DNA of 64,000 nucleotides from positions 32,001-96,000 of IMG/VR virus record IMGVR_UViG_3300035703_000020; one strand, given 5' to 3'. Under the pieces are notes generated by a model, which saw nothing but the letters and a program-made list of their open reading frames with translations, searched no databases and was not told the origin of the DNA. A program made the position numbers and the translations under genes. Below, piece by piece: positions 8,315-61,472 of the stretch (within the stretch, counting starts at the first letter, position 1; the number at the start of each line of letters is the position of its first letter). This stretch comes from a virus.

Positions 8315-9403
8315 ATGAGAAACGAATCCGTCCTGTTCCTGGAGTCGTGGCTGAACCGCCACGGGCTGCCCGCCCTGGCCGAACACGGCGTCCGCGTGAC
8401 GTCCGACGACCGCTACCCCGGCCTCTACTGCCTGAAGTACGGCCCGACGGCCGACAAGTCCTCCGACATCGTGCGGGTCTGCCGCGGCGCGGTGGTCGAG
8501 CTGAGCGAGGCCGACGGCCACCGCGTGGTCGCCTACGCGTTCGACCGCTTCTTCAACGCCGGCGAGCAGCAGGCGGCCGAGATCGACTGGGAGTCCGCCC
8601 GCGTGTTCGAGAAGCACGACGGCAGCCTGATCAAGCTGTTCCACCTCGACGGCCGCGGCTGGATCGTGTCCACCTCCGGCACGGTCGGGGCCGACATCCG
8701 CTTCGGCGAGATGGGCATGACGTTCGAGCAGCTGTTCTGGCGTGCGTTCAAGGCCAACTACGGCGACCCCGGCGAGAAGCTCGACCCCGGAGTCGTCTAC
8801 GTCTTCGAGCTGTGCACGCCCGACAACAAGGTCGTGGTCGACCACAAGTTCGACTACCTGCCGCTGCTGGCGGCGCGCGACGCCGCGACGATGGAGGAGA
8901 TCTACGTCGAGTCGTTCTCAGGCCAGTTCGCGATCGCGACCGAGTACGGCCACTGGTCGGACATCGGCCGCCTGATCGAGTGGGCCAACGAGCGCAAGGG
9001 CTCCGAGCACGAGGGCTTCATCGTCGTCGACAAGCACTGGAACCGCATCAAGGTGAAGGGCGAGTCGTACGTCCAGATGCACCGCGTCAAGGGCAACGGC
9101 GATCCCAGCTTCTTCGAGCTGTGGCGGAACGACGACCTGGTCGAGTTCTGGACCTACTTCCCCGAGTACAAGGAGCGGTTCCAACGCAGGCTGGCCCGCA
9201 TCGAGGACACGGCGTTCTTCGTCGAGGGCTTCGTGCGCGAGTACTCCCACATGGACCAGAAGCAGTTCGCGGCCCAGGTGCTGCAGCGCCACCCCAAGGT
9301 GAGCGGCGCCATGTTCTCGATCCGGTCCGGCAAGGCCGACGGGTTCGTCGGGTGGCTGATGCAGCAGAATGAGAAGAAGTTCGAGGAGATCTTCGGTGAG
9401 TGA
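8315..9403 (+). CDS. T4 Rnl1-like RNA ligase
   Basis: FDRFFNAGE, motif I EKHDGSL, FELC, EGFIV, RIKVK. Confidence 0.88.
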   Translation: MRNESVLFLESWLNRHGLPALAEHGVRVTSDDRYPGLYCLKYGPTADKSSDIVRVCRGAVVELSEADGHRVVAYAFDRFFNAGEQQAAEIDWESARVFEKHDGSLIKLFHLDGRGWIVSTSGTVGADIRFGEMGMTFEQLFWRAFKANYGDPGEKLDPGVVYVFELCTPDNKVVVDHKFDYLPLLAARDAATMEEIYVESFSGQFAIATEYGHWSDIGRLIEWANERKGSEHEGFIVVDKHWNRIKVKGESYVQMHRVKGNGDPSFFELWRNDDLVEFWTYFPEYKERFQRRLARIEDTAFFVEGFVREYSHMDQKQFAAQVLQRHPKVSGAMFSIRSGKADGFVGWLMQQNEKKFEEIFGE

Positions 9404-9638
9404 AGTCAACGTGCCCGACCTCTGGGGAAACAAACCAGAAGTGAACGAGAGCATCGCCCTGCAGCCCGAGGTCAACAGCTGGCAACCGACCAGCAGCTCG
9501 TTCAACATCAGTGTCCCGCAACACGTCGGTCATTGGGTCATCTCGGGTAACTTCCACGTCTATGTCAAGAAACGTCCCAACCGCCTCAACCGCTTCATGA
9601 CAAGGGTGCTGCTCGGGTGGGAGTGGGCAGACGCGTGA
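9396..9638 (+). CDS. hypothetical protein
   Basis: Overlap-coupled ORF ending KRPNRLNRFMTRVLLGWEW. Confidence 0.5.
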   Translation: MSEVNVPDLWGNKPEVNESIALQPEVNSWQPTSSSFNISVPQHVGHWVISGNFHVYVKKRPNRLNRFMTRVLLGWEWADA

Positions 9639-9787
9639 CTGAAGACCTGAAGTCTGAACCTAAAGTCACTAGGGTTGAGGTCATCGACCACGAAGGCCGA
9701 TCCTATGTCAACTGGGACGAGCGTAACAGGGTCGAACTCTCGTACCAGGATGATGGACGCACACTCAAGATCTTCATAAGCCGGTGA
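9635..9787 (+). CDS. small conserved phage protein (VTRVEVIDHEGRSYVNW...QDDGRTLKIFI)
   Basis: Hand-translated 50-aa ORF; GTGA overlaps on both sides. Confidence 0.65.
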   Translation: MTEDLKSEPKVTRVEVIDHEGRSYVNWDERNRVELSYQDDGRTLKIFISR

Positions 9788-10413
9788 CGACTGTCCGCTT
9801 CATCGGGGACGTCCACGGAAAGTGGACTCGCTACAAGAAACTCATCAAAAGCTGCCCAAGGTCGATCCAAGTCGGTGACTTCGGAGTAGGATTCTACAAC
9901 CCGCGCACGGAGTCCTACAGCCGTCCGCCGTACGACTCGATGTGCAAGGGCGACCACAAGTTCATCAGAGGCAACCATGATAACCCCACGCAGTGCCGTT
10001 CTCATCCGTTTTGGATCGCTGACGGCTCGCTTCTCGACGGCCGCGTGTTCTGCGTTGGCGGCGCTATGTCGATCGACAAGCACCTCCGCACGGAAGGCTG
10101 GGACTGGTGGCCGGACGAGGAGCTCAGCTACGCCCAGTTCCTCGAACTCATTCAGGCGTACGAGGAGGCCCGCCCGAGCGTGGTGGTCTCGCACGAGTGC
10201 CCGGAGACCGTCGTGAACCATGTGCTCGCCGCCAAGGGCAAGTACAAGTACGACATCCCGAGCATCACCCGGCAGTTCTTCGACAACCTCCTCCACGTCC
10301 ACAAACCCGAGCTGTGGATCCACGGCCACTGGCACTTCGACCACCACACCGTGTTCGACGGGGTCGAGTTCGTGGGCCTCGGGGAGCTATCCCACCTGGA
10401 CCTGGAGGTCTGA
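9784..10413 (+). CDS. calcineurin-like metallophosphoesterase
   Basis: GDVHG, GDFG, RGNHD, SHECP, HGHWH. Confidence 0.9.
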   Translation: MTTVRFIGDVHGKWTRYKKLIKSCPRSIQVGDFGVGFYNPRTESYSRPPYDSMCKGDHKFIRGNHDNPTQCRSHPFWIADGSLLDGRVFCVGGAMSIDKHLRTEGWDWWPDEELSYAQFLELIQAYEEARPSVVVSHECPETVVNHVLAAKGKYKYDIPSITRQFFDNLLHVHKPELWIHGHWHFDHHTVFDGVEFVGLGELSHLDLEV

Positions 10414-10595
10414 TGGACACCATCCACAAGGCGATCTACGCCGTTGACCACTATCAGATGACACGCAAGCAGCAGCTCTGGGGCGACGTCTACCGCTGCG
10501 CCTTCTACCGCTGGAAGGCCTCCGACTACCGTTCCGAGGGCGACTACGCCACGATGGTCGCCGCCCTCGGCCTCGGGGACCGGTTCTGGGAGTGA
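10413..10595 (+). CDS. hypothetical protein
   Basis: TGATG-coupled 60-aa ORF. Confidence 0.5.
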   Translation: MDTIHKAIYAVDHYQMTRKQQLWGDVYRCAFYRWKASDYRSEGDYATMVAALGLGDRFWE

Positions 10596-10657
10596 CACGG
10601 AGCACCCCTCACCGCCCCGGCGCCAGAAGCACAATACACCAAGAGAAAACCAACACC

Positions 10658-11056
10658 ATGCGAAGCAACGAGTCCCAGGGCATCGTCATCATCGGCCTGC
10701 TGGGCGCGATCGTCGTCGGCGGCCTCGCGTTCGGCCTGCCCCAGTACGGCGTCTACACCAAGACCCTGAACGGCAAGGCCCAGCTGCAGGAAGCCGAGTT
10801 CACCCGCCAGGTGGCGGTGCTCGAGGCCAAGGCCAAGCTCGACTCCGCGAAGGAGCTGGCCCAGGCCGAGGTCGAGCGCGCCAAGGGCGTCGCCCAGGCC
10901 AACCAGATCATCGGCGACAGCCTCAAGGGCAACCGCGAGTACCTCCAGTACCTCTACATCACCGGCCTCGAGGAGGGCAGCCAGAAGGGCAACGTGACGA
11001 TCTACGTGCCGACCGAGGGCGGCATGCCGGTGCCCACCCTCCAGATGAACAAGTGA
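10658..11056 (+). CDS. membrane-anchored coiled-coil protein (SPFH/prohibitin-like phage family)
   Basis: N-terminal TM; AEVERAKGVAQANQIIGDSL...YLQYL...IYVPTE. Confidence 0.7.
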   Translation: MRSNESQGIVIIGLLGAIVVGGLAFGLPQYGVYTKTLNGKAQLQEAEFTRQVAVLEAKAKLDSAKELAQAEVERAKGVAQANQIIGDSLKGNREYLQYLYITGLEEGSQKGNVTIYVPTEGGMPVPTLQMNK

Positions 11057-11673
11057 GGGACCTCGAGATAGCGGCCCGCCTGGCTTCACCCCGGAGGAGT
11101 TCGAGAAGCTTCTCGAGGAACACATCGCGAAGGCCATGTTCGACGCGATCGTCTCCTACCTGAAGAAGACCGCCGACATCATGGACGAGACCGGGCTGAG
11201 GGCGATGACGGCGGACGACCTCCGCCGCGTCGCGCTGGAAATGTCAGTACAAGGCTACGAACCGCAATGACTGGATACACATTCGAGGTGTGGGCCGACC
11301 ATACCATGTCGGGGGCGGACGGCAGGGCCGTCTACGTCGCGCGGGTTGCCGATCCGTTCGGGCTCGTGATAGGCGAGGTGAGGAGCCTCTCCGAGGACAC
11401 AACGCTGAGGCTGGCAAATGAGCTTAAGAAGGGGGACAAGGGGCGCTACGCCGCTGACCACGGTCTCTGCGCCTGAGATGACCCGCATGCAGGAGCTCTG
11501 GGATGTCATGAACGACGTCGGGATCGCCAGTATGACGGTCAACGAGCTCGAGGAGTGGTCGTACCTGATGGCCAAGAGCCTCGAGGGCAAGGGCGACCCC
11601 ACCCACGACGTGCCAGTCAAGTAAGCGCACGCCAAATGACCGGAGTCCCGCGCGAGCGCGGTAGAATTCGGCT

Positions 11674-12420
11674 ATGAGACTGAGAGATCAAACCAACAAG
11701 ATGCCGATCCCAATGGGACCAGCCCCGCCGCGCGAGCAGCGGGGCATTTTACTTACGGACCACCGGCTCGACGAGCGCTCGGTGGTCGTCATCGGCGACG
11801 TGCACGGCTGCGCGCAGGCGCTGCGCGACCTGCTCGTCGACGTCGTCAACACCGGCTGCCAGGTCGTCTTCGTGGGCGACCTGATGGACAGGGGCACCCA
11901 CTTCAAGTCGGTGCTCACGATCGTGCACTCGATGTGCACTGACCCAGAGAAGTGGGGCGTCAGCCGCGCCACGTGCCTGATGGGCAACCACGAGCGGATG
12001 ATCCTCGACGCCTACTCGAACTCGTGGGACGACGGGTGGAGGCTCTGGATGCGGAACGGCGGGCTCGTCGAGGACTTCCAGTACATCAGCGATTCCGGCC
12101 GCTGGGGCTGGCTCAACGGCCTCCCGCTCTGGTACGAGCACGAGAAAAGGGTGGAGTGGGAGGGGGAGGCCTTGCAGCTGCTGGTCACCCACGGGTCGGT
12201 CGAGCCGGGGAAGCCCTTGCGGCAGCAGGACCCGGAGACGCTCTACTGGGGCCGTGCCATCCGCGGCTACTCCCGCGACCACCTGACCGTCCACGGCCAC
12301 ACGATCTGCCACGGCGGCGAGCCGATGCAGTACGACACCGAGACCGGCAAGGTCGTCCGGATCGACACCGGCTCCTACATGACCGGCATCGTGACCGGGC
12401 TGGCGCTGAGGGAGGCGTGA
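11674..12420 (+). CDS. Ser/Thr phosphatase-like metallophosphoesterase (lambda-PP/ApaH-like)
   Basis: GDVHG, GDLMDRG, GNHE, HGHT, IDTG. Confidence 0.9.
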   Translation: MRLRDQTNKMPIPMGPAPPREQRGILLTDHRLDERSVVVIGDVHGCAQALRDLLVDVVNTGCQVVFVGDLMDRGTHFKSVLTIVHSMCTDPEKWGVSRATCLMGNHERMILDAYSNSWDDGWRLWMRNGGLVEDFQYISDSGRWGWLNGLPLWYEHEKRVEWEGEALQLLVTHGSVEPGKPLRQQDPETLYWGRAIRGYSRDHLTVHGHTICHGGEPMQYDTETGKVVRIDTGSYMTGIVTGLALREA

Positions 12421-12890
12421 TGTTCGACCTCTCGCGCTACGAGCTCATGTGCGAGCTCACGCCCGACGGCGGTAAGCTGCGGCCGTCGTGGGACCGCGCC
12501 TTCTGGGCCAAGAAGGTCCTCAGCAAGCCGCGCTCCGTCGTGTACGTCATCACGATAGGCGACGAGGTGTACAAGATCGGGATGACCGACTGCAACGTCT
12601 CGATGATCATCAACGGCTACTGCAAGAGCGACTTCCTTAGGGACCGGGCCGCGCACCGCGAGGTCCTGGCCGCGGCGGTCGCCGCCGGCGTGCCGGTGCG
12701 CTTCCACGGCTACCTCGTCGAGATGCCCCCGGTGGCCGTCACGCTCCCGAGCGGCGAGACCGCGCAGGTCAGGCCCAGGTGCGGCGGGGAGCTGGAGAGG
12801 GACGCCCTGAGGGCCTACGAGGCGGCCCACGGCGAGCTCCCGAGGGGCAACCACTTCGAGCGGGCGCCCAAGGGCCGGCGTGCCAATTGA
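12420..12890 (+). CDS. GIY-YIG nuclease resembling T4 endonuclease II (DenA)
   Basis: SVVYVITIGDEVYKIGMT matches the recalled DenA NVIYAIAINDELVYIGKT; later ELE and PxxN motifs. Confidence 0.6.
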   Translation: MFDLSRYELMCELTPDGGKLRPSWDRAFWAKKVLSKPRSVVYVITIGDEVYKIGMTDCNVSMIINGYCKSDFLRDRAAHREVLAAAVAAGVPVRFHGYLVEMPPVAVTLPSGETAQVRPRCGGELERDALRAYEAAHGELPRGNHFERAPKGRRAN

Positions 12891-12953
12891 CGAGGTGCAC
12901 ACCTTTTTAACCGGAGGGTCCCCGGGCGGCCTATGATACTTGTATCGAAACGA

Positions 12954-13163
12954 ATGAGACAAGTGAACGCCATCCAGATCCCCGCCCACGTCAAGAACGC
13001 CCGCCGCGCCGAGAAGCTCGCGGCCGACGAGTTCTGGGCCTACCACGCCGAGATCGCGGGCAAGAAGCCCGTCGACGCCAAGTACAATGCGCTCTTCGAG
13101 AGCATGAATGCCGCGCGCGTCCGCCGCGTCGAGGCCGTCCGCCAGTTCACCCTGGGGCTGTGA
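12954..13163 (+). CDS. hypothetical early protein
   Basis: Follows the composite promoter at 12880-12943. Confidence 0.6.
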   Translation: MRQVNAIQIPAHVKNARRAEKLAADEFWAYHAEIAGKKPVDAKYNALFESMNAARVRRVEAVRQFTLGL

Positions 13164-13600
13164 TGCTGATCGCCCACGTGATGATCGGGGCCCCGGGCTC
13201 CGGCAAGTCGACCTCGGCCTCGACGCTGGCCGCGATGTTCGACTCCGTCGTCGTGTCCACCGACGCCGTCCGCGCCGAGCTGTGGGGCGACGAGTCGGTC
13301 CAGGGCGACTGGGCCGAGGTGTCCCGCGAGGTTAACCGGCGCATACGCTGCGCAGCCGCCGCCGGCCGCAACGTCGTGCTCGACGCCACCCACGCCAAGC
13401 GCGCCTACCGCCGCCGCGCGGTCGAGATGCTCCGCGATTCGGGCTACGAGTCCGTCGTGCCCATGCTGGTGCACCCGCCCCTCGAGACGTGCCTGGGCCG
13501 CAACGAGCGGCGCGATCGCGTCGTCCCCGCCGACGTCGTCGAGCGGATGTGGCGCGCGATCGAGCAGAACAAGAACGATATTCAACAGGACTTCGAATGA
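13160..13600 (+). CDS. polynucleotide kinase (P-loop, AAA_33-like)
   Basis: GAPGSGKST, STDAVR, VLDATH, RNERRDRVVP. Confidence 0.88.
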   Translation: MMLIAHVMIGAPGSGKSTSASTLAAMFDSVVVSTDAVRAELWGDESVQGDWAEVSREVNRRIRCAAAAGRNVVLDATHAKRAYRRRAVEMLRDSGYESVVPMLVHPPLETCLGRNERRDRVVPADVVERMWRAIEQNKNDIQQDFE

Positions 13601-14292
13601 TGACCGAGACATTCCTCATAGGCGACGTGCACTCGCAGGCCGACAACCTCGAGCGGGCCCTGGCGCACGTGCTGAACAGCGGCGGCGAGAGCGCGCGCGT
13701 GATCTTCCTCGGCGACCTCTTCGACTCGCGCTGCGCGACGTCCCAGTCCGCGGAGGTGTACGGCATCGTCCGCTCCTTCCAGGACGCCTACGGCGCCACG
13801 GTGCTCAACTCGAACCACCAGGACAAGCTGCGGCGCTACCTATCCGGGTCGCCGGTGCGGGTCGACCTCGTGCCCGAGCTCGGGCGCACCATCCGCGAGT
13901 TCGAGGAGACCAACATCGACCGCGACGAGCTGCTGGGCTGGCTCGAGTCGTGCCCCTACGGCTACGTCTTCAACGACAGCTCGGGCCGCGAGTACCGCTG
14001 CGCCCACGCCTACTTCCCCAGCTGGGTCGAGCCCGACGGCGCCGTCGTGACCGGCGAGGGCCTGCCCCGCAAGGCGAGGGACCTCATGCTCTACGGCAAG
14101 CGCGACCACGAGACCAAGCAGCGGGTCCGCTGGTGGGAGCACGAGAGCCGCGTGCCCTGGACCCGCGTGTCCGGCCACTACCACTGCGTGCACCTCTCGG
14201 AGCGTTCGCTCGTCCTCGATGGGCAGTGCGGCAACGAGGGCGGCCAGCTGCCGGTCTACGAGGTGAACGCTGGACGCCTCACGTACTTCTGA
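13597..14292 (+). CDS. Pnkp-like metallophosphoesterase (candidate 2',3'-cyclic/3'-phosphatase)
   Basis: GDVHS, GDLFD, SNHQDKLRRYL, HA, GHYH, LD; coupled to the kinase. Confidence 0.8.
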   Translation: MMTETFLIGDVHSQADNLERALAHVLNSGGESARVIFLGDLFDSRCATSQSAEVYGIVRSFQDAYGATVLNSNHQDKLRRYLSGSPVRVDLVPELGRTIREFEETNIDRDELLGWLESCPYGYVFNDSSGREYRCAHAYFPSWVEPDGAVVTGEGLPRKARDLMLYGKRDHETKQRVRWWEHESRVPWTRVSGHYHCVHLSERSLVLDGQCGNEGGQLPVYEVNAGRLTYF

Positions 14293-20504: not shown

Positions 20505-21074
20505 ATGCTCATCATCGTCTCCGGCCCCGACCGCGTCGGCAAGTCGACCCTGATCAACGCCATGGCCGAGGAGCTCGGCCGCGACATCACCTACGTCGCC
20601 CACCACGGCCCGCCGCCAAAGACCAACGACAACATCTTCGACGTCTACCGCGACACCATCCAGGACTGGAAGTGGTCCGGCAAGCCGTACGCGATCTTCG
20701 ACCGCGCGTACCCCTGCAGCTACATCCTCGAGCAGCACCGCCGGCGCAACGCGGGCCACTTCGAGGACGTCATCGACTTCGAGATCGAGCTGATGGACGC
20801 CGTCGACTCCGTCGTGCACCTCGGCGTCTTCCGGCCCTGGCACTGGTCGGCGCCGCTGCACGTCGAGGAGGTCCGCGAGGAGAACCCCGGCGCCGCCCCG
20901 TGGCTGATCCGCGACGAGTACATCGCCCGCATGCAGGAGCACCAGATCTACACCGAGCAGCTCCTCAACTTCTACGACAACATCTCGATGTTCCCCAACG
21001 CCCGCATCGAGAACGAGGAGACGGTCGGGTCGATGGCGCTCGCCCGCTGCCGCGAGGCGCTGCGGAGGTCCTGA
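20505..21074 (+). CDS. dNMP/thymidylate kinase-like P-loop kinase
   Basis: IVSGPDRVGKST, IFDR; next to the ThyA-like gene. Confidence 0.8.
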   Translation: MLIIVSGPDRVGKSTLINAMAEELGRDITYVAHHGPPPKTNDNIFDVYRDTIQDWKWSGKPYAIFDRAYPCSYILEQHRRRNAGHFEDVIDFEIELMDAVDSVVHLGVFRPWHWSAPLHVEEVREENPGAAPWLIRDEYIARMQEHQIYTEQLLNFYDNISMFPNARIENEETVGSMALARCREALRRS

Positions 21075-21295
21075 TGCCCTTCCCGATGCCGCAGGACCCG
21101 GGATTCCTGCTCGAGTACTGCCGGGAGTGGATCGACGACGCCAACGAGCGATACGACAAGGGCATGAGAGCCATGGCCCAGGAGAGCATGCGCTCGGCCG
21201 CCCAGCTCTACATCCAGCTCCCCCGCGGCTACAGCAACCCCGAGCTGGAAAAATACTACCAGGAGACCCTCAAGAAGGTGTACGGACAAGTATGA
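21074..21295 (+). CDS. hypothetical protein
   Basis: Coupled between the kinase and ThyA-like genes. Confidence 0.55.
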   Translation: MPFPMPQDPGFLLEYCREWIDDANERYDKGMRAMAQESMRSAAQLYIQLPRGYSNPELEKYYQETLKKVYGQV

Positions 21296-22194
21296 TCATC
21301 CGCGAAATGAGCAAGAAACCCGCGCACGTCGTCCACTTCGGCGATCACGTCATCAAGAGCGAAAACTGGGACTACGTCTATGGCGAGTACCTGTTCGACA
21401 TCATGACCCACGGCGAGCAGTTCGTCGGACGCAACGGCGAGACGAAGGCCGCCTTCGGCTGCTCGGCGCGCGTCGACCTGCGCTGCGGGTTCCCGCTCAC
21501 CAGGCTCCGCAAGATGCCGTGGAAGAACCTCGTCCGCGAGTTCCTCTTCGACGTCGGCTTCAACACCAACGTCGAGGCGCTCGGCCCCGCCAAGCACTTC
21601 TGGGACTTCCTCGCCGACGAGAACGGCGAGCTCGGCGCGTCGGCCTACTGCAGGCAGTGGCGCCAGTGGCCGCCCTCTGCCCAGGGCGCGGAGGTGCCCA
21701 ACGAGACGCTCGAGACCGGGCGGCCGGTCGACCAGCTCCGGGACGTCGTCCACCTGCTGAACAACCACCCCAACTCCAGGCAGGCGACCGTCATCACCCA
21801 CAACCCCACCGCGATCGACCCCGCCTGCCCTCCCTGCCACATCGCGATGCAGTTCGCGCCGTCCAAGGACGGGTGGCTCGACCTGATGGTCCCGGCCCGC
21901 TCCAACGACATGGTGGTCGGCTTCCCGCTGGACATCGCCCGCTACGCGCTGATCCTCAAGGCGGTCGCGATGATGACCTGCAAGGCGGCCCGCTACGTGT
22001 ACATGCCGAGCGCCAACTCGCACATCTACGAGAACTGCTACGATCTCGTCGACGAAATGATCGAGCGCGAGCCCAAGCCGGAGTGCCAGGTGCGGCTGAC
22101 CCACGCGCCGCTCAGCTTCAAGGAGCTGACGCTCGACAGCTTCGAGCTGACGGGCTACGACCCGCACCCGGCCATCAAGGTCGCCGTCAACTGA
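21292..22194 (+). CDS. thymidylate synthase-fold enzyme with Asp at the Asn177 position (possible dCMP methylase/hydroxymethylase)
   Basis: GFPL, FWDFLADENGELG, PPCH, RSNDMVVGFPLDI, HIY, YDPHPAIK. Confidence 0.88.
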   Translation: MIIREMSKKPAHVVHFGDHVIKSENWDYVYGEYLFDIMTHGEQFVGRNGETKAAFGCSARVDLRCGFPLTRLRKMPWKNLVREFLFDVGFNTNVEALGPAKHFWDFLADENGELGASAYCRQWRQWPPSAQGAEVPNETLETGRPVDQLRDVVHLLNNHPNSRQATVITHNPTAIDPACPPCHIAMQFAPSKDGWLDLMVPARSNDMVVGFPLDIARYALILKAVAMMTCKAARYVYMPSANSHIYENCYDLVDEMIEREPKPECQVRLTHAPLSFKELTLDSFELTGYDPHPAIKVAVN

Positions 22195-59905: not shown

Positions 59906-60706
59906 ATGGCAAAAATTAAAGGGGGTGAGCCGCATGATCACCTAGAGTTCGCATTGGTCGAATCTCAAACCTTTGTCACCGATACAATGCCAGCTTGCAA
60001 AGAGCGTCGCAAGGAACGCAGGGCTAACGTGGCCCGCGCCGAGCTCGACACCCACCGCAACATGGACCTCATGCCGTTCATCCCGAGGACGGACAGGCAG
60101 GAGGAGCTCTGGACATGCCTCAACAAGAACACCGTCACGATCGCCGTCGGCCCGGCCGGCGTCGGTAAGACCCTCGTGGCCCTGCACTGGGGCCTCAGCT
60201 CGATCAGGGTCAACCAGATCGACAAGATCTACTACCTGCGCTCCGACGTCGGGGTCATGCACCAGCGGGGCCGCGGCGCGCTGCCGGGCACGATGGAGGA
60301 GAAGATGGCGCCGCTCGTCGGCCCGGTCTTCGACAACCTCAACGTGATCATGCGGTCGCACGGCGCCGCCGAGTACCTCGTCAACAAGAAGGTCGTCGAG
60401 CCGATCCTGCTCGAGGACGTCCGCGGCCGCTCGCTGTCGAACTGCCTGATCGTCTTTGACGAGGCGCAGAACGCCACGCCCGACCAGTGCAAGACCGTGC
60501 TGAGTCGCGTCGGCGAGAACGCCAAGGTGGTCCTCACGGGCGACACCAGGCAGATCGACCTCGACGTGTTCCAGACCAACTGCGGGCTGATCGACGCCTA
60601 CCAGCGCCTCGCGGGGCTCGACCAGGTCGGCAGGGTCCGGTTCACGGCCGACGACATCGTGCGCAACTCGGTGATCGCACACATCCTCAGAAGGTATGAC
60701 GACTGA
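59906..60706 (+). CDS. phoH: PhoH family ATPase
   Basis: GPAGVGKT, LPG, RGRSL, DEAQN, GDTRQID, DIVRN. Confidence 0.93.
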   Translation: MAKIKGGEPHDHLEFALVESQTFVTDTMPACKERRKERRANVARAELDTHRNMDLMPFIPRTDRQEELWTCLNKNTVTIAVGPAGVGKTLVALHWGLSSIRVNQIDKIYYLRSDVGVMHQRGRGALPGTMEEKMAPLVGPVFDNLNVIMRSHGAAEYLVNKKVVEPILLEDVRGRSLSNCLIVFDEAQNATPDQCKTVLSRVGENAKVVLTGDTRQIDLDVFQTNCGLIDAYQRLAGLDQVGRVRFTADDIVRNSVIAHILRRYDD

Positions 60707-61472
60707 CGCGGACAGGTACGCATCCTCGTTCGACGGTGGGTCCCGGGAGGTTCTCGGGGCCCTCTTCGACTTCGCGGCGTGCGAGAGGCCGGACGGGTCC
60801 CGCTACGGGATCGCGGCCGGCAGGCGGTGCAGGAAGGGCCGCGAGGTCGACATCGAGGGCGCCGAGTGGGAGTACCTCACGAAGGGCAACTACGGGGCCG
60901 TCGAGATCGACCGAAAGCAGGGGCTGATCCGCAAGACCAACGTGCCGGGCCGGAGCTTCGGCGAGCACGAGGCGGAGCTGCAGAGGATGATGGGCGACGC
61001 GGGCCACAGCCCGAAGCTCCACAGGGCGTCCGACAGCGAGATCGTCATGGACCTGGCGCCCGGGAAGACGATCTGGAAGGACTACAGGCCGTCCGAGGGC
61101 GAGAAGGGCGTGAGGTTCAACGAGGCGCAGGCCTCGGCCGCGGCGAAGGCCGTGCTGTTCCTCCACCGCAAGGGCTTCTACCACGGCGACATGCACAGCC
61201 TGCAGTGGATGGTGGACGGCGACAGGCCCATGCTGATCGACTTCGGCCTGAGCGGTAAAACGGCCTCGGACCCGAGGAAGGCGCTGCAGGACTGGACGAA
61301 GGGCGCGGCGTTCATGAACCTCGACGCCGTCGGCGGGGAGGGCGGCAGGCGCGTCCGGGACTACGTCGGGCGGTACAGGGAGGCGGGGGCGTCCAAGCCC
61401 GCGAAGGACAGGCAGGCCAAGCAGGAGCAGGTCGCCAGGGAGTACCTGGACTGGGTCGGCTCGCTCGGGTAA
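60696..61472 (+). CDS. protein-kinase-like enzyme fused to the N-terminal Cys module
   Basis: DFAACERPDGSRYG..CRKG, then LTKGNYGAV, HGDMH, LIDFGLS. Confidence 0.8.
   Translation: MTTDADRYASSFDGGSREVLGALFDFAACERPDGSRYGIAAGRRCRKGREVDIEGAEWEYLTKGNYGAVEIDRKQGLIRKTNVPGRSFGEHEAELQRMMGDAGHSPKLHRASDSEIVMDLAPGKTIWKDYRPSEGEKGVRFNEAQASAAAKAVLFLHRKGFYHGDMHSLQWMVDGDRPMLIDFGLSGKTASDPRKALQDWTKGAAFMNLDAVGGEGGRRVRDYVGRYREAGASKPAKDRQAKQEQVAREYLDWVGSLG

Follow-up and report, generated by a model that had tools for sequence, protein, structure and literature searches.

A cyanophage gene cassette coupling a thymidylate synthase homologue of predicted dCMP type to a putative nucleotide kinase: a candidate source of modified cytosine

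What would a ThyA-type thymidylate synthase homologue, tightly linked to a putative nucleotide kinase, be doing in a phage that could apparently make its thymidylate without it? The question is raised by a three-gene cassette in a 64,000-nucleotide stretch of viral DNA (hereafter the window, meaning the whole stretch that was analysed), which covers bases 32001-96000 of IMG/VR record IMGVR_UViG_3300035703_000020. The record (149,878 bp, with direct terminal repeats, 65% GC and nearly all of its genes on the + strand) is that of a cyanophage; genes for both psbA and psbD are present, their products matching Photo_RC at 6.6e-91 and 1.5e-73. We infer, with a rough probability of 0.78, that the cassette codes for a C5 one-carbon transferase specific for deoxycytidine monophosphate (dCMP) and for a nucleotide kinase, which together would feed a modified deoxycytidine nucleotide into replication; this inference extends to the substrate, the product and its incorporation.

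The cassette is made up as follows:

20505-21074, + strand: P-loop nucleotide kinase-like protein of 189 amino acids, with a Walker A motif; first gene of the cassette
21074-21295, + strand: conserved open reading frame (ORF) of 73 amino acids, between the kinase and the ThyA homologue
21292-22194, + strand: ThyA-fold enzyme of 300 amino acids, predicted dCMP C5 one-carbon transferase (PF00303, Asp177)

An earlier, sequence-only reading had placed a kinase and a ThyA-fold enzyme within 20505-22194, and the first and last of these genes are indeed present there on the + strand, the ThyA-like frame ending at 22194. The ATG at 21292 is the start also given for the ThyA homologue by the database gene call (P0001); a longer frame, from a GTG at 21127, runs over the conserved small ORF. 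The stop codon of the kinase gene overlaps the start of the 73-amino-acid ORF (TGATG), whose own stop overlaps the ThyA start (ATGA), so that the three genes form one translationally coupled cassette. This cassette is found in 11/11 related contigs that include the upstream DNA, and a DNA polymerase gene lies directly upstream of it in related contigs. In L014 and L036, two contigs with another gene organisation, the kinase gene also directly precedes the ThyA homologue, the adjacency persisting where other neighbours differ. The small ORF is 52-93% identical in nine related contigs and absent from the more distant L014 cassette; it matches no Pfam family, and in the atlas all of its neighbours are hypothetical proteins of viruses. 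In the closest isolate, Synechococcus phage S-CBWM1, the layout from the polymerase to the structural genes is the same and the whole cassette is missing, and the search of phage records gave no close match to the ThyA homologue in that phage. The coupling, the adjacency kept in differing contexts and the absence of the cassette as a unit from S-CBWM1 all strengthen the earlier pairing of the kinase with the ThyA homologue, the substrate of the kinase being a prediction that is taken up below.

By its sequence the ThyA homologue belongs to the thymidylate synthase superfamily: it matches PF00303 over model positions 3-264 of 266 (2.7e-55; 187.8 bits, the cut-off being 24.3), can be aligned over its full length with E. 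coli ThyA chains of solved structure (HMMER) and is 34% identical to E. coli ThyA. Residues are numbered here as in E. coli ThyA, and were placed by the HMMER alignment to the E. coli chains and by MAFFT alignments. The window enzyme has RSNDMVVGFPLDI opposite E. coli RSCDVFLGLPFNI, with Asn177 replaced by Asp, Cys168 by Asn, and Asp169 retained, and its C-terminal GYDPHPAIKVAVN corresponds to E. coli GYDPHPGIKAPVAI. It also keeps Trp80, the catalytic Cys146, His147 and the residues that bind phosphate and base (Glu58, Tyr94, Arg166, Ser167, His207 and Tyr209), as well as the tail residues Ile258, Lys259 and Val262. The alignments thus bear out the Asp at the Asn177 position and the retained PCH (Cys146-His147), FWD (Trp80) and C-terminus that had been read from the window alone. 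Five changes characterise the enzyme: Asn177Asp, Gln165Ala, Leu143Cys, Trp83Leu and Cys168Asn. The Asn177/Gln165 pair with which the canonical synthase of deoxythymidine monophosphate (dTMP; EC 2.1.1.45) reads the O4/N3 face of uracil is Asp177/Ala165 here. Of the hydrophobic Leu143/Trp83 pair and the tail, which in that synthase close the active site during hydride transfer, the pair is Cys143/Leu83 here and the tail is retained.

Position 177 acts as the switch between deoxyuridine monophosphate (dUMP) and dCMP (PMC8670742; PMC13326640), and engineered Asn-to-Asp mutants, as cited in PMC8670742, move the enzyme to dCMP. For comparison we used relatives from phages with known or strongly indicated DNA modification, which differ at the diagnostic positions as follows:

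Window enzyme and S-TIM5 ThyA: 143 Cys, 147 His, 165 Ala, 169 Asp, 177 Asp; tail kept
Xp12 5-methyl-dCMP synthase: 143 Asn, 147 Pro, 165 Leu, 169 Asp, 177 Asp; tail partly kept
T4 dCMP hydroxymethylase: 143 Asp, 147 Thr, 165 Met, 169 Asp, 177 Asp; tail absent
RB69 5-hydroxy-dCMP synthase: 143 Glu, 147 Thr, 165 Met, 169 Asn, 177 Asp; tail absent
dUMP-hydroxymethylase homologues of MP1412, Nachito and PhiJL001: 143 Asp, 147 Asn, 165 Asn, 169 Asp, 177 Asn; tail long and different

RL38J1 gp166, tried as a further 5-hydroxy-dCMP synthase reference, turned out to be a canonical ThyA (Leu143, Asn177, 56% identity to the E. coli enzyme, adjoining dihydrofolate reductase (DHFR) gene) and became the canonical control. 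The Asp at position 177 that marks dCMP enzymes is present in the window enzyme as in Xp12, T4 gp42 and RB69 gp48, the three characterised dCMP enzymes, in all of which Gln165 is replaced too. By the published residue signatures the window enzyme would be of the dCMP type, and the earlier proposal to that effect gains support from Asp177, from the replaced Gln165 and from the presence of a separate thymidylate synthase, ThyX, in the phage.

This signature is not a chance substitution, since it is invariant among the homologues of the window enzyme: in a set of 120 database proteins at least 60% identical to it, Asp177, Cys143, Asn168 and Asp169 are present in 120/120, and Ala165 accompanies Asp177 in every case. 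An exhaustive search of 1.8 billion protein cluster representatives yielded 7,652 relatives; among the best 150 of these, 25 have Asp177 and 120 have Asn177, and the nearest clusters are almost all Cys143/Asp177. Gln165 is replaced in most of the Asp177 representatives, four of those in the tree keeping it. In a FastTree phylogeny (support values not weighed) the window enzyme and that of S-TIM5 fall in a large Asp177 clade adjoining canonical ThyA, with Xp12, T4 gp42 and RB69 gp48 branching outside this clade. Related ThyA clusters in metagenomes number more than 260.

The rest of the nucleotide metabolism of the phage bears on whether such an enzyme is needed for thymidylate. The genome carries an intact ThyX (G000 117065-117880; PF02511, 1.9e-40; RHRS motif), a dCMP-deaminase-family gene with HAE and PCxxC motifs ~78 kb from the cassette, and a ribonucleotide reductase fused to glutaredoxin, and with these three present the ThyA homologue is dispensable for dTMP. 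It could still be an ordinary thymidylate synthase that tolerates Asp177 and, with a thymidylate kinase beside it, raises the supply of deoxythymidine triphosphate (dTTP). Of the non-canonical enzymes in the comparison it most resembles ThyA (34% identity to the E. coli enzyme, with the tail, Trp80, His147 and Asp169 kept), and the fold class of the kinase includes thymidylate kinases. We nevertheless consider this improbable, as Asp177 and the replacement of Gln165 are invariant across the clade, ThyX is already present in this phage and likewise in S-TIM5, the engineered mutants cited in PMC8670742 move towards dCMP, and a genome of 65% GC has a comparatively low demand for dTTP.

The deaminase suggests another route to the same end, in which 5-methyl-dCMP would mainly serve dTTP synthesis, its triphosphate being deaminated as proposed for Xp12-like phages and little or no modified cytosine entering virion DNA. 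The closest solved relative of the phage deaminase is the PBCV-1 dCMP/dCTP deaminase (7fh4, 1.5e-25), which is also the closest structural relative of a deaminase selective for 5-methylcytosine (5mC) (bioRxiv 10.1101/2024.12.05.627091), and the residues of the ThyA homologue are methylase-like. Against this stand the ThyX, which makes such a bypass unnecessary, the full replacement of C by 5mC in DNA that the described cases also show, and the distance of the deaminase gene from the cassette; taken together, they leave this route a slim chance.

Equally slim is the case for a flavin-dependent 5-hydroxy-dCMP synthase of the RB69 gp48/DLP3 gp80 type or for some other C5 chemistry. Asp177 is common to that type, and the invariant Cys143 agrees with neither the Leu expected for methyl transfer nor the Asp or Glu expected for hydroxymethyl transfer. 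The change Asp169Asn is, on the other hand, diagnostic of 5-hydroxy-dCMP synthases (PMC13326640), and Asp169 is retained here and in 120/120 homologues, so that by the published signatures the window enzyme is not one of them. The folate-binding tail and Trp80, lost in RB69 gp48, are kept, and no glycosyltransferase was recognised among the ~100 ORFs scanned or by tblastn with five glycosyltransferase queries. The same tblastn search gave no match with T4 gp56, the Xp12 HAD hydrolase or the Xp12 DHFR, and T4 alpha- and beta-glucosyltransferases, TET/JBP proteins and C5 DNA methylases were likewise sought in the genome without any being found.

If the ThyA homologue is a dCMP enzyme, its partner should be a kinase able to accept the product. 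The kinase has a Walker A motif (GPDRVGKST, residues 7-15) and was modelled with high confidence by AlphaFold2 (pLDDT 94.7). Foldseek compared the model with the Protein Data Bank (PDB) and ranked folds of the PPK2, thymidylate kinase, deoxynucleoside kinase and guanylate kinase types highest (E from 2e-5, TM scores 0.5-0.64), its hits to these types extending over E 2e-5 to 6e-4 and TM scores 0.4-0.64, and on the strength of this model it is placed in the thymidylate-kinase/PPK2/deoxynucleoside-kinase fold class. The phage family phrog_761, annotated 'thymidylate kinase', matches its N-terminus only. A profile of its homologues weakly matches RB69 gp45, the 'thymidylate kinase' of the 5-hydroxycytosine cluster, and the kinase of metagenomic contig L039. 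The possibility that it is the missing half of a split 5-hydroxymethyldeoxyuridine DNA kinase (5-HMUDK) was rejected, as the profile has no similarity to the kinase parts of the 5-HMUDK proteins of MP1412 and PhiJL001. In another metagenomic contig, L050, a T4-gp42-like enzyme (53% identity) lies in an operon in which a thymidylate-kinase-like gene is followed by the ThyA homologue and then by a deaminase and a dUTPase_2-family protein. This shared order makes 'kinase for modified dCMP' a reasonable, though tentative, label for the cassette kinase, drawn from its fold and position.

The reading that we prefer, modification of cytosine at the nucleotide level, involves one further phage gene:

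17205-20117, + strand: family A DNA polymerase with a Pol-gamma-type exonuclease domain (PF18136, 5.7e-58; PF00476, 6.5e-11)

The ThyA homologue would use Cys146 and methylene-tetrahydrofolate to put a one-carbon unit on C5 of dCMP instead of dUMP, the cytosine N3/N4 face being read by Asp177 with an Ala now at position 165. The co-translated P-loop kinase would phosphorylate the modified dCMP, a host nucleoside diphosphate kinase would complete the triphosphate, and the Pol-gamma-like polymerase of the phage would incorporate it. Meanwhile dTMP would come from the phage ThyX, supplied by the phage dCMP deaminase. Such a module would act before replication.

Which one-carbon unit is added is less easily decided. 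Within the cytosine-modification reading we would divide the probability between 5-hydroxymethyl-dCMP (~45%), 5-methyl-dCMP (~40%) and other products (~15%). In T4-type pyrimidine hydroxymethylases, as in MilA and the dUMP hydroxymethylases, the substrate water is activated by an acidic residue (Asp or Glu) at the third position ahead of the catalytic Cys, and T4 D145N, a conservative change, yields no 5-hydroxymethyl-dCMP; the C-terminal tail of ThyA, for its part, closes the active site for hydride transfer (PMC6400193). Neither the acidic residue nor the loss of the tail is seen in the window enzyme: position 143 is Cys in 120/120 homologues and in S-TIM5, and Asp or Glu in the enzymes of T4, RB69, MP1412, Nachito, PhiJL001 and L039. 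What is seen is the combination of the Xp12 type (Asp177, a non-acidic 143 and Asp169), features that permit 5-methyl-dCMP synthesis and are not exclusive to it. Given the non-acidic position 143 and the kept tail, the residues alone point to 5-methyl-dCMP. Trp80, His147, Asp169 and the tail are all retained, the Xp12 methylase likewise lacks an acidic 143, and when seven deaminase-linked Asn177Asp homologues of ThyA were assayed, 5-methyl-dCMP was the product of five (bioRxiv 10.1101/2024.12.05.627091).

The gene context points the other way, through enzymes that need a hydroxyl group on the base. S-TIM5, whose ThyA has the same signature, carries a homologue of the T4 alpha-glucosyltransferase (PF11440, 5.7e-10, above the cut-off), labelled 'DNA alpha-GT' in the legend to Fig. 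1 of PMC10087341. In the window itself the relevant gene is the following:

6285-7202, + strand: HMUDK_hel/aGPT-Pplase-like helical protein of 305 amino acids (PF18723, 3.5e-21, whole domain)

A longer frame, from 6024, opens with an apparently non-coding stretch rich in Arg, Pro and Gly. The protein consists of the helical domain only, with no P-loop kinase domain, and so lacks one of the two domains that define a 5-HMUDK. Its AlphaFold2 model (pLDDT 83) is closest in the PDB to PaMx11 gp46, a 5-phosphomethyl-deoxyuridine (5-PmdU) glycinyltransferase (8z2m; probability 0.99, TM score 0.48-0.50, with a weak E of 0.09), followed by the helix-hairpin-helix glycosylases MutY and Ogg, and in a small database its profile picks up the 'aGPT-Pplase clade 1' protein of Nachito (3e-16). 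The gene is retained in the cassette-bearing relatives and was not found in S-CBWM1 or S-TIM5. Homologues occur beside T4-type dCMP hydroxymethylases in two unrelated metagenomic phage contigs. In L039 (9151-12170) a 43%-identical homologue directly follows a ThyA homologue with the T4 signature (Asp143, Thr147, Met165, Asp177, no tail), and a P-loop kinase, a PRA-PH pyrophosphatase and a deaminase come next; in L050 (4060-6143, 10001-10930) a distance of 5 kb separates the T4-gp42-like operon from a homologue of 39% identity. These arrangements hint that one branch of the PF18723 'thymidine hypermodification' domain family acts on cytosine-derived bases. The HMUDK_hel-like protein is therefore best regarded as a candidate enzyme for 5-hydroxymethylpyrimidine in DNA, its connection with the cassette being one that we draw from context, and if the product is 5-hydroxymethyl-dCMP this enzyme would probably decorate the DNA. 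The lack of a recognised phage DHFR (none was found in the genome) would also suit a reaction without folate oxidation. The context argument for hydroxymethyl is circumstantial, coming from few lineages and from enzymes whose substrates are putative. Taken at its fullest, it would make the Cys143/Asp177 clade a new type of dCMP hydroxymethylase, with the tail kept and no acidic residue, whose 5-hydroxymethylcytosine is then processed by the HMUDK_hel/aGPT-Pplase-like enzyme; we regard this specific scheme as unlikely.

A rejected partner for the HMUDK_hel-like gene is the oxygenase gene that precedes it, considered as a 5mC oxidase. The adjacency is lost in a relative (L040) and no TET/JBP domain is present, which gives the idea a low probability. 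At least six genes for 2-oxoglutarate-Fe(II) oxygenases (PF13759/PF13640) are scattered in the genome, as would fit roles unrelated to DNA modification:

Window 5105-6013
L015:5020-5610, L015:6165-6713 and L015:14727-15503
L019:10000-10632 and L019:11148-11738

The least probable reading, a dUMP hydroxymethylase opening a thymidine hypermodification pathway with the HMUDK_hel-like protein downstream, as in M6, PaMx11, SP10 and phiW-14, could appeal to the PF18723 protein, to its fold nearest PaMx11 gp46 and to the co-occurrence of characterised 5-HMUDK systems with ThyA-family dUMP hydroxymethylases (PMC5889632), and is very hard to sustain given that the homologues from 5-hydroxymethyldeoxyuridine-type phage clusters (MP1412, Nachito and PhiJL001) have Asn177, Asp143, Asn147, Met80 and a long, different C-terminus, none of which is found in the window enzyme, that the helical protein has no accompanying P-loop DNA-kinase domain, and that its nearest outside homologues sit with dCMP-type (Asp177) enzymes.

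Several observations weigh against the modification of cytosine as we propose it. The product signals conflict, the residues favouring methyl and the gene context hydroxymethyl, and the HMUDK_hel-like gene lies 14 kb from the cassette, to which it is linked by co-occurrence in few lineages. The 'dedicated deoxynucleoside monophosphate kinase' of the sequence-only reading holds as to its fold class and falls short as to its family, for the protein matches no Pfam family above cut-off, giving a P-loop match only, and no PDB sequence at E<=1. No enzyme of the dCTPase type was found, the genome having neither MazG nor a trimeric dUTPase, which leaves the exclusion of dCTP unexplained and means that the replacement of cytosine may be partial. 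These absences are in turn not proof, as CheckV gives the record a completeness of 69% despite its terminal repeats.

Among the closest known systems is that of Xp12, in which 5mC fully replaces C. Its 5-methyl-dCMP synthase (QNN97214) shares the ThyA fold, Asp177, a replaced Gln165, Asp169 and a non-acidic 143 with the window enzyme, keeps part of the C-terminal segment, and comes from a genome that also encodes a dCMP deaminase. It differs in having Asn143, Pro147 and Phe83 where the window enzyme has Cys143, His147 and Leu83, and in lying outside the Asp177 clade of the latter; its gene is adjoined by those for DHFR and the deaminase with no ThyX annotated, whereas the window phage has ThyX, no DHFR that could be found, and a coupled kinase. 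T4 (gp42, the gp1 deoxynucleoside monophosphate kinase, the gp56 dCTPase and the glucosyltransferases) follows the same logic, from an Asp177-type ThyA homologue through a kinase to the phage polymerase, and the kinase-then-ThyA order recurs in the T4-gp42-like operon of L050. T4 gp42 has Asp143 (Asp145 in T4 numbering), Thr147 and no tail, in contrast to Cys143, His147 and the full tail seen here, and searches of the genome of the window phage turned up neither a dCTPase nor a glucosyltransferase of the T4 type.

Of the phage isolates, cyanophage S-TIM5 has the ThyA that matches best (YP_007006147, 40.8% identity); this protein shares Cys143, His147, Ala165, Asn168, Asp169 and Asp177 and has a divergent tail (Val258, Arg259, Val262). 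Besides this one Asp177 ThyA, S-TIM5 encodes ThyX, a Pol-gamma-like polymerase and a protein homologous to the kinase (29% identity). It differs in that these genes are dispersed and form no cassette, in having no HMUDK_hel protein, and in encoding both the T4 alpha-glucosyltransferase homologue and a C5 DNA methylase. The latter lies 3 kb from the Asp177 ThyA, with the alpha-glucosyltransferase homologue elsewhere (S-TIM5 137478-138380, in L054; S-TIM5 6802-7188, in L032).

RB69 gp48 and DLP3 gp80 (PMC13326640) share with the window enzyme the ThyA fold, Asp177 and the pairing with a dedicated nucleotide kinase, and of the reference kinases the window kinase profile weakly matches RB69 gp45 alone; the window enzyme lacks their Asp169Asn and Leu143Glu and keeps Trp80 and the folate-closing tail. 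Thymidine hypermodification systems (M6/PaMx11, SP10 and phiW-14; PMC5889632, PMC8989533) have in common with the window phage a PF18723 protein, the PaMx11 gp46 fold, a ThyA-family enzyme and a kinase. They are set apart by the dCMP signature of the window ThyA, by a helical protein without a kinase domain and by the lack of any recognised kinase of the 5-HMUDK type. The MetaGPA contigs (PMC8670742) and the preprint 10.1101/2024.12.05.627091 share Asn177Asp, a source in viral metagenomes and the co-occurrence of dCMP-deaminase-family genes; the consulted texts of these two sources give no account of the cyanophage clade, Cys143, the coupling to a kinase or the coexistence with ThyX.

Natural Asn177Asp ThyA homologues already serve as in silico markers of cytosine-modified phage DNA, several having been assayed (PMC8670742; 10.1101/2024.12.05.627091; PMC13326640). 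The marker idea is thus known, and the interest here lies in a cyanophage clade with an invariant Cys143, in which the enzyme is coupled to a kinase and to a small conserved protein and coexists with ThyX, and in a possible link to an HMUDK_hel-type enzyme. As Cys143 fits none of the published residue rules for methyl, hydroxymethyl and hydroxy products, the clade provides a test of those rules. If our reading is correct, a widespread group of psbA/psbD cyanophages swaps some or all of its cytosine for a C5-modified form, which would bear on the evasion of cyanobacterial restriction and CRISPR systems, on the recovery of cyanophages in sequencing- and PCR-based surveys, and on the drain of host nucleotide and folate pools during infection. 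Were the novel-hydroxymethylase scheme to hold as well, it would be for cytosine what hypermodification is for thymidine, and hypermodified cytosine would occur in abundant cyanophages of fresh and estuarine waters.

Other cyanophages of this group may have taken different paths. In S-CBWM1 (L053:3729-7921) a protein bearing the annotation 'SNF2 DNA repair' contains a TET/JBP dioxygenase domain (PF12851, 3.2e-20), and its gene is followed by those for a phosphoheptose isomerase and a glucose-1-phosphate thymidylyltransferase; a C5 DNA methylase was sought in S-CBWM1 and none was found. The gene content suggests another kind of DNA modification cluster, one that would act after replication. Three related cyanophage lineages thus appear to have three toolkits (ThyA-Asp177 with the HMUDK_hel-like protein here, ThyA-Asp177 with an alpha-glucosyltransferase homologue in S-TIM5, and TET/JBP with sugar-nucleotide genes in S-CBWM1), which makes the group suitable for comparing routes to modified DNA.

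The window polymerase is 49% identical to that of S-CBWM1 and 36% identical to that of S-TIM5, and relatives are found at the protein level only, blastn with the region as query having matched none of 50,697 phage records. The palindromes GATC, GGCC, CCGG, CGCG and GCGC are not avoided across the 150-kb genome (observed/expected 0.96-1.05), a figure that speaks neither way without a host or unmodified-phage baseline. Elsewhere in the window, a T4 Rnl1-type RNA ligase (8315-9403), a PNK-like AAA_33 kinase (13160-13600) and three metallophosphoesterases (9784-10413, 11674-12420 and 13489-14292) likely constitute an RNA-repair set (8315-14292), the same genes being found in relatives. Weak matches to the eukaryotic-type protein kinase/ABC1/APH fold occur at window 60696-61472 and at G000:C1:96406-99444, one of these proteins being 1,012 amino acids long. 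The genome further encodes a 635-amino-acid protein of the flavin-dependent tryptophan-halogenase family, outside the window (G000:C1:114660-116567; PF04820, 4.8e-101), a pyrimidine-dimer DNA glycosylase (PF03013; G000:C1:135155-135727) and a homologue of gyrase/topoisomerase IV subunit A (G000:C1:27101-29089).

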